A stretch of 42,617 nucleotides of DNA. It comes from a virus. Below are positions 13,115 through 16,763 of the stretch, one piece after another; within the stretch, counting starts at the first letter, position 1; each line of letters begins with the position of its first letter. The stretch is taken from the IMG/VR virus record IMGVR_UViG_3300035400_000018. One strand, given 5' to 3'. Both the position numbers and the translations under genes were made by a program. Under the pieces are notes generated by a model. The model saw only the letters and a list, made by a program, of their open reading frames with translations, searched no databases and was not told where the DNA came from.

Positions 13115-13428
13115 AAACCTCCGTCCGCGAATCCAGCCTCATAGCCTACGACACACTCAAGACCGCCGACCTGGGCCGCCAGGAGCGCCAGGTGCTCGCC
13201 GGAGTGGCCCTACTGATCCGTACCGGCCAGCACACCGACGGATGGGTCAGCCGCCGTCAGATCGCGCAGCTCACCGGCCTGGAAACGTCTACCGTGGCGG
13301 CGCGCACCAACTCGCTGATTGCGGCCCGCCGGCTGGTGGAATCCGAGGAACTGCAGCCGTGCCCGGTGACGGGGCGGAACGTGCACATGGTCGGGCTGCC
13401 GGCACCGGCAGGCAAGGAGGCGGCATGA
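13111..13428 (+). CDS. Winged-helix (MarR-like) DNA-binding protein (105 aa)
   Basis: Sequence SRRQIAQLTGLETSTVAARTNSLIAARRLVE. ATG 13111 is coupled to the upstream small ORF. Confidence 0.5.
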   Translation: MKTSVRESSLIAYDTLKTADLGRQERQVLAGVALLIRTGQHTDGWVSRRQIAQLTGLETSTVAARTNSLIAARRLVESEELQPCPVTGRNVHMVGLPAPAGKEAA

Positions 13429-14054
13429 GAAAGTTTTGGACTGACGCCGAAGACCGCTGGCTGATCGACAACTACCCGGACACGCTGGCAGAGGACATAG
13501 CAAAGCATTTGGGTCGCACTGTCCGGTCCGTTTATGCCCGCGCGAACGGCATGGGTCTCAAGAAAAGCGCCGAGTTTCTATCCAGCGAGGCGGCGGGCCG
13601 CACCAATCTGCTGAAGGCCGGAGAAAAACACAGATTTCACTCGGGGCAAACCCCGTGGAACGCCGGCAAGAAGGGTTGGCAGGCCGGAGGCCGCGCCAAG
13701 GAAACCCAGTTCAAGAAGGGGCGGAGGCCGCACACCTGGAACCCGGTCGGCCATGAGCGCTTGACCAAGGATGGATACCTGCAGCGCAAGGTCACGGACA
13801 CCGGCTGCACGCCGCGCGACTACCGGATGGTCCACCACTTGGTGTGGGAGGAAGCCGGCGGAGAGATCCCACCCGGACACGTCCTTGTGTTCCGCAACGG
13901 TAACAAGCGGGACATCCGCCCGGAAAATCTGGAACTGATCACCCGGGCCGAGAACGCCCGCCGTAACTCCATCCATCGTTATCCGCCAGAGCTTCGCGCC
14001 GCCATGAGAGCAGCGGGCAAGCTGCGCCGGAAAATCCAGGAGGCTGAATCATGA
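13425..14054 (+). CDS. HNH endonuclease with an N-terminal Myb/SANT-like domain (209 aa)
   Basis: WTDAEDRWLIDNYPD..., then DGYLQRKV...MVHHLVWEEAGGEIPPGHVLVFRNGNKRDIRPENLELITRAENARRN. AAGGAGG lies upstream of ATG 13425. Confidence 0.8.
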   Translation: MRKFWTDAEDRWLIDNYPDTLAEDIAKHLGRTVRSVYARANGMGLKKSAEFLSSEAAGRTNLLKAGEKHRFHSGQTPWNAGKKGWQAGGRAKETQFKKGRRPHTWNPVGHERLTKDGYLQRKVTDTGCTPRDYRMVHHLVWEEAGGEIPPGHVLVFRNGNKRDIRPENLELITRAENARRNSIHRYPPELRAAMRAAGKLRRKIQEAES

Positions 14055-14529: not shown

Positions 14530-14941
14530 CACGATCACCCTGTTCGCCAAAGAGCAGCTAGGCGACCTCATGAGTGAGCTGCTGCGCCGTGATTTCCCGG
14601 TGCGGGTCAAGATCACCAAGGCGAGCCGCACGCTTTCGCAGAACGCGCTGTACTGGCAGTGGCTCACCGTTATGGCGGCCCATTTCACCGAGCGCGGCCA
14701 CCGGCTCACCAAGGACGATGCCCACGACCTGATGCGGCACAAGTTCCTGGGCCACGAAACCAAGACCGTGGGCAAGACCGAAATCACCAAGCTGCGCAGC
14801 ACCGCCGAGCTGGATAAGGGCGAAATGACCGACTACATGACGCAGATCGACAACTGGTGCGTTGACCACGGGTGCCTGCTGCCCAAGCCCGAGGACAGCG
14901 AATACCAGCAGATCATGCGGGAAATGGGGGAGGTGGCATGA
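14522..14941 (+). CDS. ninB: NinB/Orf-family recombination mediator (139 aa)
   Basis: Sequence KASRTLSQNALYWQWLTVMAAHF resembles the NinB signature (R-L-QN ... W). ATG 14522 was chosen over the upstream alternative start. Confidence 0.7.
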   Translation: MADTITLFAKEQLGDLMSELLRRDFPVRVKITKASRTLSQNALYWQWLTVMAAHFTERGHRLTKDDAHDLMRHKFLGHETKTVGKTEITKLRSTAELDKGEMTDYMTQIDNWCVDHGCLLPKPEDSEYQQIMREMGEVA

Positions 14942-16392
14942 CCGCCTACTACAACGAAATCGACCCGTTCGCCGCCCAGTGGCTGCGCGAGCTGATAGCG
15001 GCCGGCCTGATTGCGCCTGGCGACGTTGACGAAAGGAGCATCGAGGATGTTCGACCAGATGACCTTGTGGGATACACCCAGTGCCATTTCTTCGCCGGAA
15101 TCGGCGTGTGGAGTTACGCCCTTCGCCGAGCCGGATGGCCCGACGACGCGCCAGTCTGGACCGGTTCCTGCCCATGCCAGCCTTTCAGCTCGGCAGGCAA
15201 AAGAGGCGGGTTTGATGACGAGCGGCACCTATGGCCCGCCTTCCACTGGCTTATCCAGCAGTGCGCGCCTCCAGCTGTCCTTGGAGAACAGGTTGCGAGC
15301 AAACCTACAGGGCCGTGGTTCGACCTTGTACAAGCTGACGTGGAAGCCCTGGGTTACGCCTTCGGGTGTGTCCCGTTCCCGTCTGCGGGCGTCGGTGCCC
15401 CGCATATCCGAGACCGTGCGTATTGGGTGGCCAACGCCGGCGGCTTGGGACTACAAGAGCGAATCGGCGAGCGACGAATTCAACGAGAAGCGGTGGGCTC
15501 ATGCGAGGGGGAAGCCGCTGTCGGCGGTGGTCACGTTGGCGGGCTGGCCAACGCCAGGGGCCAACAACTACAAGGGGCAGCCGGAGACGGCGAGAGGCCT
15601 GGAAAATCTGGATGGAAAGGCGCTGCTAGCTGGCTGGGCAACACCCAGGGCGAACGATGCGGAGAAGCGCGGGCAATTGGCGCCGGACATACGGAACGGT
15701 CTGCCAATGCAGGCTCAGCAATTGGGGCCGCTCCGTCTGACGGCTTCTGGCGAGACGCTGACTGGCTCCTCTGCCGGGATGGAAAGCTCCGGCCAGTTGA
15801 ACCCGGCCCACAGCAGATGGTTGATGGGTCTGCCGACTGCGTGGGACGAGTGTGCGCCGAAGGAGTTACCAAAGCGGAGGAAGAAATAGATGGATGGTCG
15901 AAGCGACATTCTGTCGACGCCGGAGAAGCTTTGCGAAATCTGTGGGTCAAGCTTTCAGAGGAGGCGCTTGGCGAGCGGGCGCCTGGAGGACCGTGGGGCA
16001 TATTTGAGGCGCCGATTCTGCTCGCTTTTCTGCGCCAACTCTCGGAGCAAGGGTGGCGCTTCTCGGACGCGCTCACATGTTCGCGCTCGGACGCATCTAG
16101 GGCCATGTTGCGAGCACTGCGGTTCGACCGAGAAGCTGCATGTCCATCATGCGGACGAGAATTGGCGGAACAACGATCCGATGAACCTGCAAACCCTTTG
16201 CGAGAGCTGTCACAGATCCTGGCACGCAACGCAGAGAGCTCGTGGGGTGAAACCTGCTGGACGTATGCCGGCAAAGGGTTCCCTCTAGCCAAGAACGCTT
16301 CCGCCCGAGTGGGACGACTGCGCGGTTATGGCAATGCCATCAATGCCCAAGCGGCCACGGCGTTCATCCAAGCCGTGATGGAGGTGGCCTGA
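14938..16392 (+). CDS. DNA (cytosine-5)-methyltransferase, frame 1 (484 aa if read straight through)
   Basis: Motifs FFAGIG (I-like), PCQPFS (IV), GEQV (ENV-like, VI), APHIRDR (VIII) and GYGNAI (X-like) at the C-terminus. GGGGGAGG lies before ATG 14938. The middle (about 15430-15740) is low-complexity with poor third-position G+C, and the frame also runs through an HNH gene. Confidence 0.75.
15047..15889 (+). CDS. Overprinted frame-2 ORF (280 aa) with GW[PA]TP repeats and an LMGLP..W C-terminus
   Basis: AAGGAG (15033-15038) lies 8 nt before ATG 15047. Sequences [59 protein letters not shown]. Third-position G+C is higher than frame 1 in sampled windows. Confidence 0.55.
15830..15859 (+). repeat. 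Left copy of the imperfect 30-bp direct repeat flanking the HNH cassette
   Basis: CTGCCGACTGCGTGGGACGAGTGTGCGCCG matches 16298-16327 at 21/30 positions. The offset of 468 bp is a multiple of 3. Confidence 0.6.
15890..16288 (+). CDS. HNH endonuclease (132 aa), frame 2, nested inside the methyltransferase frame-1 ORF
   Basis: GGAGG (15876-15880) lies 9 nt before ATG 15890. Sequences CEICGS and [39 protein letters not shown]. Confidence 0.7.
   Translation: MDGRSDILSTPEKLCEICGSSFQRRRLASGRLEDRGAYLRRRFCSLFCANSRSKGGASRTRSHVRARTHLGPCCEHCGSTEKLHVHHADENWRNNDPMNLQTLCESCHRSWHATQRARGVKPAGRMPAKGSL
16298..16327 (+). repeat. Right copy of the imperfect 30-bp direct repeat flanking the HNH cassette
   Basis: CTTCCGCCCGAGTGGGACGACTGCGCGGTT encodes LPPEWDDCA in frame 2 and SARVGRLRG in frame 1. 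Confidence 0.6.
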
Positions 16393-16763
16393 TGCAAGGC
16401 GGCAAAGCACCCACGGCAGCCCAGCGCCGGTGGCATCAATGGCTCCGGGACCAGGGCTGCGCCTGCTGCGGCATGCCGGCGGAGATCCATCACTGCGTCG
16501 GGTCCACGGGCAAGCACAACAAGGTGTGGATAGGCCAAGATTTCTGCCTGCCCCTGTGCCCGCGCCACCACCGGCACGAGGCGTCGATCGACAAAAACAC
16601 CGCCCAGTTCGTCACCGAGTATTACGGCTCACCCCGGGACATCGGCCGGCGGGGCATGGAGAAGACCATTTTTGCCGGGCTGGTGGCGCACTACCGCCGC
16701 ATGAAGGGCGAGCTGCCGTGTTCGGCGGAGGTGCTGGCTGCGATTGAGGACTACCACCGTTAG
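16392..16763 (+). CDS. Cys/His-rich putative nuclease (123 aa), NinG/Ref-like
   Basis: Sequences CACCGMPAEIHHCVG and LPLCPRHHRHE. TGATG overlap with the methyltransferase stop. Family assignment is tentative. Confidence 0.45.
   Translation: MQGGKAPTAAQRRWHQWLRDQGCACCGMPAEIHHCVGSTGKHNKVWIGQDFCLPLCPRHHRHEASIDKNTAQFVTEYYGSPRDIGRRGMEKTIFAGLVAHYRRMKGELPCSAEVLAAIEDYHR

Follow-up and report, generated by a model that had tools for sequence, protein, structure and literature searches.

Positions 14,938 to 16,392 of a viral metagenomic contig of 42,617 nucleotides (IMG/VR record IMGVR_UViG_3300035400_000018, referred to here at its full length as the window) hold two long open reading frames (ORFs) that overlap on the same strand. 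This locus probably encodes a two-chain phage C5-cytosine DNA methyltransferase, a reading to which a probability of about 0.75 is assigned. Frame 1 would supply the large catalytic domain, and frame 2, nested inside it at a +1 offset, would supply the small domain that includes the target-recognition region. Across related phage loci, sequence comparison shows dual purifying selection, the upkeep of both open frames, and homology of the two frames to consecutive parts of a canonical single-chain enzyme; independent translation of the chains, formation of a heterodimer and enzymatic activity are what we infer from it. An earlier reading of the letters alone (the sequence-only reading) had located both ORFs, an AAGGAG site ahead of frame 2, the methyltransferase motifs and a set of G-W-[PA]-T-P repeats, and all of these hold when compared with the ORF list and the sequence.

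Layout of the two frames and selection on each

The frame-2 ORF lies wholly within the frame-1 ORF, with an overlap of about 840 nucleotides. Read from its start, frame 1 contains motifs I, IV, VI and VIII. An unconstrained linker comes next, followed by a conserved hairpin, a segment that results from reading through an inserted HNH endonuclease gene, and finally motif X. The features of the locus are as follows.

14938-16392, plus strand: frame-1 ORF (ATG 14938, stop 16390-16392, 484 residues), the alpha-like chain of the C5-cytosine methyltransferase
14938-15433, plus strand: frame-1 catalytic core, with FFAGIG (15088-15105), PCQPFS (15172-15189), GEQV (15283-15294) and APHIRDR (15397-15417)
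15033-15038, plus strand: AAGGAG, a Shine-Dalgarno-like site 8 nucleotides before the frame-2 ATG, made from the frame-1 codons GAA-AGG-AGC of a conserved DERS
15047-15889, plus strand: frame-2 ORF (open 15011-15889, ATG 15047, stop 15887-15889, 280 residues), the beta-like chain
15047-15178, plus strand: frame-2 leader (residues 1-44), open and free of amino-acid constraint
15179-15433, plus strand: first doubly constrained stretch; motifs IV-VIII in frame 1, an N-terminal module (helix and hairpin) in frame 2
15425-15451, 15542-15568 and 15632-15658, plus strand: frame-2 repeats GWPTPAAWD, GWPTPGANN and GWATPRAND
15434-15730, plus strand: frame-2-only stretch, the target-recognition region; a stop-free, unconstrained linker in frame 1
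15731-15858, plus strand: second doubly constrained stretch; frame 2 including motif IX (15797-15847), a hairpin (15742-15807) in frame 1
16324-16341, plus strand: motif X, GYGNAI, in frame 1

For comparison, 106 related loci were fetched by means of frame-2 peptides, a route that biases the count of open frames. Both frames are open in about 100 of these, always at the +1 offset and at GC contents of 0.48-0.68; frame 1 is open even in loci of 48-53% GC. The two frames end within a few tens of bases of one another, and in some loci the frame-2 stop lies a few nucleotides past the frame-1 stop.

For 81 non-redundant loci (below 95% identity) aligned by their frame-2 codons, diversity was calculated for each codon phase and for the four-fold sites that are conserved. 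The wobble positions divide the locus into five parts.

14938-15175: frame-1 wobble free (about 0.6); frame-2 wobble mostly held by frame 1
About 15180-15433: many frame-1 wobble positions invariant (15270, 15294, 15327, 15387, 15393); frame-2 wobble held by frame 1
15434-15730: no coding signature in frame 1; frame-2 wobble free (0.5-0.74)
15730-15860: hardly any variation at the four-fold sites of either frame
After about 15860: frame-1 wobble free again; frame-2 wobble held by frame 1

An OLGenie-type estimate was made from 126 sequence pairs of 78-97% identity, with dNN/dNS as the test for frame 2 and dNN/dSN as the test for frame 1 (intervals in square brackets).

Control upstream of the frame-2 start: frame 2 1.34 [0.78-2.67], not significant; frame 1 0.08
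Leader, 15047-15178: frame 2 0.75 [0.29-1.95], not significant; frame 1 0.09
15179-15433: frame 2 0.33 [0.19-0.56]; frame 1 0.20 [0.12-0.33]
15434-15730: frame 2 0.40 [0.33-0.48]; frame 1 1.09 [0.94-1.28]
15731-15858: frame 2 0.29 [0.15-0.54]; frame 1 0.56 [0.32-0.95]

These estimates show purifying selection on frame 1 only over 14938-15178, on both frames over 15179-15433, on frame 2 only over 15434-15730, and on both again over 15731-15858, past which frame 1 carries motif X alone. About 380 of the roughly 840 overlapping nucleotides are thus under purifying selection in both frames. The sequence-only reading had placed dual constraint at roughly 15047-15430; this stands from near 15180 onward and fails for the leader (15047-15178), and the second dual stretch had gone unremarked.

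Synonymous-codon shuffling indicates that the openness of neither frame is a by-product of the other. Over 15181-15432, frame 2 is stop-free in all 81 loci where 15.6 would be expected. Over 15434-15730, frame 1 is stop-free in all 81 and only 11.1 would be expected after synonymous shuffling of frame 2, which argues that frame 1 is kept open as an unconstrained linker; it would so be translated through the whole middle of the locus, though the amino acids there appear unimportant. The sequence-only reading had explained the open frame 1 as the passive shadow of a frame 2 rich in third-position G+C, and this explanation is contradicted by the shuffling. Its hand counts of third-position G+C are themselves sound: the recomputed values for frame 1 and frame 2 are 37/60 and 45/59 (15241-15420), 11/20 and 17/19 (15481-15540), and 27/40 and 26/39 (15121-15240). 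Among the explanations that it had offered, a genuine ORF overprinted at +1 is upheld by the count of loci with both frames open and by the selection and shuffling tests. By these comparative measures frame 2 is confirmed as a real and widely conserved gene and not a shadow ORF.

The two proposed chains and a single-chain homologue

The frame-1 product scores 47.2 bits against PF00145 (cut-off 22) over residues 73-172, a match that covers only profile positions 64-167 of 324, that is, motifs IV-VIII. It carries the catalytic Pro-Cys of motif IV (PCQPFS), and the large-domain fold, a Rossmann-like core with the motif X helix, is recovered by structure prediction. In the AlphaFold2 (AF2) model, the predicted local distance difference test score (pLDDT) is 85-96 for residues 1-170 and 78-93 for the C-terminal helix of motif X, and falls below 50 in the linker (residues 183-268). 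Foldseek matches this model to M.HhaI, DNMT2 and M.HaeIII at E values near 1e-5 over about 170-185 columns, corresponding to the large domain only. The target-recognition domain and motif IX that other PF00145 members carry between motifs VIII and X of the same polypeptide are absent from frame 1, given that its middle is unconstrained (1.09) and predicted to be disordered, and that the homologous elements are found in frame 2. A conserved segment of 50 residues (frame-1 residues 1-50, 14938-15087) precedes the glycine loop FFAGIG. As the PF00145 match begins only at profile position 64, the N-terminal motif order may differ from that of textbook C5-methyltransferases.

The relation between the two frames is clearest in a comparison with Mycobacterium phage WillSterrel gp71, which was reached through a weak tblastn match in the frame of an annotated methylase. 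This protein is a canonical single-chain C5-methyltransferase, in which PCQPFS..ENV..APHQRDR is followed by three LLPTPxxxDG repeats, LNPAFPEWMMGWPTGW and GNGVVP; its C-terminal part comprises the three LLPTPxxxDG repeats, RLNPAFPEWMMGWPTGW and IIGNGVVP. In hhalign comparisons with gp71, residues 66-161 are matched by the profile of frame 1 (probability 98.4%, E 5.8e-15) and residues 166-359 by that of frame 2 (probability 94.6%, E 6.7e-8). Taken together, the frames thus correspond to adjoining portions of a single ordinary enzyme, and the points at which one hands over to the other coincide to the codon. Within frame 2, the region 15434-15730 aligns to the three LLPTPxxxDG repeats and motif IX aligns to RLNPAFPEWMMGWPTGW, which bears out the earlier suggestion that the C-terminal frame-2 element resembles the region near motif IX. 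Together with the selection tests, these alignments also support the proposal, made from the sequence alone, of a two-polypeptide methyltransferase with its recognition part in frame 2.

The locus and gp71 share PCQPFS..DERH.WP, ENV/EQV, APH.RDR, three [LW]PTPxxxD repeats, LNPxxxxW[LM]MGxPxxW and GN[AG][IV] in the same linear order, but in gp71 all of these lie in one frame and on one chain. Two segments of the phage locus stand outside the shared set. The frame-2 segment from about residue 45 to about residue 100, written over motifs IV-VIII, has no clear gp71 counterpart, the gp71 alignment beginning at frame-2 residue 101 (PWVTPSG). The frame-1 hairpin at 15742-15807, which overlies the frame-2 segment just before and into motif IX, also appears to be without a gp71 counterpart; for frame 1 the reported match concerns motifs IV-VIII only. 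AF2 predicts a helix (71-90) and a hairpin (96-116) in frame-2 residues 71-116, with pLDDT of 74-85.

The frame-2 start in the window is probably ATG 15047. An equivalent ATG lies within the open frame in 58 of the 81 loci, and most others have an ATG at the equivalent of 15059, 15029 or 15023. In phage N15 the earliest frame-2 start corresponds to 15215, and the leader is thus dispensable. Diversity at frame-1 four-fold sites is about 0.6 over the leader. The arginine codon at 15034-15036, which forms part of the Shine-Dalgarno-like site, is AGG in 27 of the 81 loci (33%) against 3.3% at other frame-1 arginine codons, a ten-fold enrichment.

Under the favoured explanation, frame 1 would yield the large catalytic domain, with the S-adenosylmethionine-binding and catalytic motifs I, IV (PCQ), VI and VIII, and would continue through a disordered linker, of no particular sequence but required to stay open, to a brief conserved hairpin and the helix of motif X. 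Frame 2 would be translated from its own start, ATG 15047 behind AAGGAG, into the small domain, composed of the leader, a family-specific helix-plus-hairpin, three WPTP repeats for target recognition, and motif IX. The two chains would then associate and rebuild the usual two-lobed enzyme, which would clamp the DNA, flip out the target cytosine and methylate it. Two family-specific modules, each written over ancient motifs of the other chain, would be the likely docking surfaces, and by analogy they are regarded as candidates for that role. In the window, an HNH gene would have inserted at the shared 3' end and brought with it a recoded copy of the last 24 or so frame-2 codons, with the result that frame 2 would end before the HNH gene and frame 1 would read through it, in the other frame, to the native motif X.

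An HNH gene at the shared 3' end

The 3' end of the locus contains a third ORF and two copies of the end of the overlapping pair.

15818-15889, plus strand: recoded, cassette-borne copy of the 3' end; frame-2 reading kept, frame 1 degraded and lacking motif X
15890-16288, plus strand: HNH endonuclease ORF, 132 residues, in frame-2 phase, starting right after the frame-2 stop (ATAGATG)
16296-16390, plus strand: native 3' end downstream of the HNH gene, 95% identical over 95 nucleotides to the 3' end of the relative L027

The HNH product matches PF01844 at 25.7 bits (cut-off 21.4) and HNH families of PHROG at E values down to 2e-12, and contains the motif ...N...CESCH. The close relatives L027 and L028, which in the flanks share 96% and 95% protein-level identity with the window (tblastn with the N-terminal 166 residues of frame 1), lack this gene. 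At least 12 other loci (L060, L109-L121) carry it at that site, where it always begins at the frame-2 stop and in frame 2. These relatives were found from an alignment of two sequences; a pattern search with the single protein gave none. Its variable presence at a single site within a conserved host gene, combined with an HNH nuclease motif, indicates that this is probably a mobile, homing-type gene, and the TAG-ATG junction suggests translational coupling of HNH to frame 2.

The two copies of the 3' end have been partitioned by frame, in the window and in at least 12 other loci. The upstream copy (79% identical to the native end of L027 over 15818-15856) retains frame 2. The downstream copy retains the frame-1 reading, with a block from 16279 that includes motif X, and its frame-2 motif IX is destroyed (L*PRTL). 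That each copy has kept the reading of one frame constitutes independent evidence that both readings are needed. The recoding of the duplicated target is at most consistent with self-protection from HNH cleavage. The insertion adds 155 codons to the frame-1 ORF; the frame-2 end at 15889 and these extra codons stem from the HNH insertion, which the sequence-only reading did not recognise.

All loci with the insertion that cover the full HNH gene (L060, L109, L112-L121) have frame 1 open right across it. The frame-1 translation across this region (15808-16278) is itself conserved, with AF2 pLDDT of 71-82 for residues 310-340, and the wobble positions of the HNH gene are only some 1.3-2.4 times as diverse as its other positions. 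On this small set of sequences, the HNH region may be a third doubly constrained stretch. In L113 and L117 (about 2001-2495), the HNH ORF runs on into the original frame-2 tail, ...LM[GA]LPPEWDA.AP..., and in L121, L115, L116 and L114 it carries a shorter version, only ...LPPEWD.CAP.... In these loci (L113-L117, L121) the HNH ORF reads into the native 3' end, and the HNH protein thus carries the old frame-2 C-terminus. An intron or intein was also considered, with no RNA structure search made; the HNH ORF lies in frame 2 rather than in the host frame 1, and frame 1 stays open through it in all spanning loci.

Alternative explanations and precedents

Several results weigh against a two-chain enzyme. 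The frame-2 product has no match in Pfam or NCBIfam; the profile searches proposed in the sequence-only reading succeeded for frame 1 (PF00145) and, for frame 2, only through hhalign to gp71. The AF2 model of frame 2 alone is weak (mean pLDDT 61, predicted template modelling score 0.28), and Foldseek on this low-confidence model returned noise only, which is uninformative on the fold. When frame 1, frame 2 and frame 1 are spliced into a composite, motifs IX and X do not raise the PF00145 score, and the motif IX link thus rests on the hhalign comparison with gp71. That composite is collinear with the canonical enzyme, which is also compatible with frameshifting. Finally, neither the Shine-Dalgarno-like site nor the position of the start is universal, and the leader is unconstrained.

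The absence of a family match for frame 2, along with its low-confidence model and its family-specific N-terminal module, would be expected if it were a real protein that merely shares this DNA and has some other job, for example in regulation, in anti-defence or as a different kind of DNA-binding protein. A PDB sequence search with frame 2 alone and with a profile of 120 sequences likewise gave nothing at E<=10. Overprinted viral genes often serve accessory functions (PMC8227390). This explanation is nonetheless unlikely, since the frame-2 profile aligns to canonical recognition repeats and motif IX (E 6.7e-8), frame 1 has no constrained sequence where recognition elements belong, and both ORFs occur together in essentially every family member examined.

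The exact collinearity of the composite (motifs I-VIII, then repeats and IX, then X) with gp71 is what would be seen if ribosomes made one polypeptide by shifting frame twice in a programmed way, by +1 near 15430 and by -1 near 15855, with the frame regions outside this relay left untranslated. The GWPTP begins at the codon that ends motif VIII, and the motif X block begins where motif IX ends. Such a relay is, however, very unlikely, since amino-acid selection acts on frame 2 about 85 codons upstream of the first junction and on frame 1 about 40 codons upstream of the second. Frame 1 is also open through the middle, and frame 2 open back to about 15060, in 79-81 of the 81 loci as against 11-16 expected. 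Programmed frameshifting would call for a conserved slippery site or stimulator and a zero frame that closes soon afterwards. No slippery heptamer or in-frame stop is present at 15415-15445 or 15840-15870 of the window, and the four-fold sites by the first junction (15411, 15417, 15427-15445) vary freely, with no conserved stimulator visible. In HNH-bearing loci, moreover, a gene of 400 nucleotides lies between the second supposed junction and motif X. Two chains are favoured over a double frameshift on the strength of the selection upstream of the hand-overs, the openness of both frames far past them, and the lack of a slippery site or synonymous constraint at the first junction.

A G+C content of 61.5%, as in the window, makes long alternate-frame ORFs common, and three of the 106 loci (L003, L022, L024) have broken frames, both of which would suit a frame 2 that is only a functionless shadow of a GC-rich gene, or a locus that is misassembled or a frameshifted pseudogene. 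The chance of this is negligible: the layout is retained at 48-53% GC and in a Vequintavirus, the shuffling and selection tests both oppose it (the latter with a clean negative control), and the frame-2 protein forms more than 10,000 sequence clusters. On the comparative data we accordingly reject a shadow ORF, a pseudogene and a sequencing error alike.

For the two-chain enzyme, the closest precedent by analogy is M.EcoHK31I, a YGGCCR-specific C5-methyltransferase of E. coli HK31 (Lee, Kam & Shaw, Nucleic Acids Res 1995, as cited in PMC2836561 and PMC3404938). These two papers describe an alpha and a beta chain that are both needed, with beta encoded wholly in another frame inside the alpha gene and carrying motif IX; the N-terminus of beta is needed for association with alpha, and deletions there weaken the association. 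On that description the two systems are alike in being two-chain C5-methyltransferases with the small chain nested in another frame within the large-chain gene. In both, motifs I-VIII and X fall to the large chain and IX to the small one (the latter, for the phage locus, by hhalign to gp71), and the role of the beta N-terminus parallels the family-specific N-terminal module of frame 2. They differ in the placing of the recognition domain: M.EcoHK31I is described as having it in alpha and motif IX alone in beta, whereas in the phage locus the recognition repeats and motif IX are both in frame 2 and the large chain has neither. M.EcoHK31I is further described as part of a restriction-modification system, unlike the phage genes, which lie in early and recombination regions. 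This separation is drawn from the published description and not from sequence.

The sequence-only reading had cited split C5-methyltransferases, and M.AquI in particular, as a precedent; split enzymes do serve as one, but M.EcoHK31I, as portrayed in PMC2836561, is closer. M.AquI is a natural C5-methyltransferase of two polypeptides as well, split in the variable region, with motifs I-VIII on alpha and IX and X on beta (Karreman & de Waard 1990, in the summary given by PMC3404938). Its genes follow one another in a simple N/C split, whereas the phage locus keeps motif X on the large chain, in frame 1, and nests the small chain over about 840 nucleotides. A synthetic parallel is the engineered overlapping alternate-frame insertion, in which a tolerant stretch of an outer gene receives an inner gene in another frame while its own frame is kept stop-free (bioRxiv 10.1101/2024.11.07.622342). 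Frame 1 is likewise stop-free across the frame-2 recognition region and the HNH gene, but the engineered design serves gene stabilisation, and the phage arrangement is natural and ancient, with both products being parts of one enzyme. We rate the locus as belonging to a known kind, the heterodimeric C5-methyltransferase with a nested alternate-frame subunit, with the recognition domain in the nested frame as the new element; should M.EcoHK31I prove homologous, the locus would instead be a further member of its family. The nested layout was found described for only one enzyme, M.EcoHK31I, and is here present in thousands of phages, mostly annotated with one gene; no description of dual coding in this phage family was found in the literature searched, nor any lead there on 'Mte8', a name used in K1-phage annotation.

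Distribution and consequences

The frame-2 protein is assigned to PHROG phrog_1008 and has about 8000 scored homologues among called proteins, and 10,869 clusters at 50% identity (E<=1e-3). Dual-frame loci include those of phages N15, epsilon15, K1ind1 and BcepC6B and of the Vequintavirus CarlMeissner. A tblastn search with frame 2 found 226 phage records, including N15 gene 58, epsilon15, K1 phages, BcepC6B, PMG1, and Vibrio and Rhodobacter phages, and an independent search with frame 1 found 245. CarlMeissner, the one record without a frame-2 match that was checked, has a 196-codon ORF at +1 that ends in ...LNPAFPCWLMGYPPQWD. Despite the retrieval bias, the frame-1-based counts agree with the loci retrieved by frame 2.

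Annotation of the pair is uneven. K1 phages (K1ind1) list both ORFs, the 'DNA methyltransferase' matched in PMG1 is the frame-2 ORF only, and the original gene caller retained frame 2 on the contig studied here and frame 1 only as a piece of 95 residues. In PMG1 (L002 / L106, NC_016765), frame 2 is intact and the open part of frame 1 begins no earlier than the codon-30 equivalent, its N-terminus lost or frameshifted; the truncation may reflect gene decay or a sequencing error. A DNA-level relative of the N15 gene is found in 63 of 5,426 complete E. coli genomes, and the E. coli matches listed (H206-H230) each have a single RefSeq feature, 'DNA cytosine methyltransferase', with the second ORF unannotated. 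EBPR siphovirus 2 gp44 (L108, 135-2630) is an 831-residue fusion 'methylase' with a frame-2 homologue in its +1 frame, and Dunaliella viridis virus SI2 (L107) has a 134-residue remnant, labelled cytosine methylase, that shares its DNA with a frame-2-like stretch in +1. Loci differ in how many [WL]-x-T-P repeats they have, with about one in K1ind1 and CarlMeissner and at least four in epsilon15 and L027, and the frame-1 linker changes in length accordingly, as might be expected if the recognition domain were modular and determined target specificity.

The closest named relatives of the contig are proteins of Alcanivorax metagenome-assembled genomes. The genes around the locus are of the phage early and recombination type: HNH_3, NinB, DUF968/Ref, VRR-NUC and a DksA/TraR zinc finger. 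Nucleases are unusually abundant there, with a second endonuclease of the HNH_3 type two genes upstream (13242-14054, E 3e-17) and a DUF968/Ref-like nuclease gene downstream (16392-16763), whose ATG overlaps the frame-1 stop (TGATG, 16390-16394).

A wider proposal, to which we would give an even chance, is that this phage family of more than 10,000 clusters has an obligate two-chain enzyme whose whole small domain has moved to +1, that reciprocally overprinted modules join the chains, and that in one sub-lineage the large chain also passes, in its own frame, through a mobile HNH gene. If this is true, it would be a natural alternate-frame insertion, unlike M.EcoHK31I in what is nested. Few instances of long dual coding on one strand have been put forward for double-stranded DNA phages, and they are often contested; this locus offers a clear and statistically strong one. 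A very common phage gene needs re-annotation, given that RefSeq and most phage records give only one of its two ORFs, and recoded or codon-optimised expression of the annotated frame 1 would lose the recognition subunit and probably give an inactive or unspecific enzyme. The family also provides a model for how an enzyme may be split into two chains without separating its genes, and for how new interaction modules may arise by overprinting. Its HNH-bearing members suggest how a homing-type gene may invade a dual-coded site, with a recoded duplicate serving one frame and the original left for the other.

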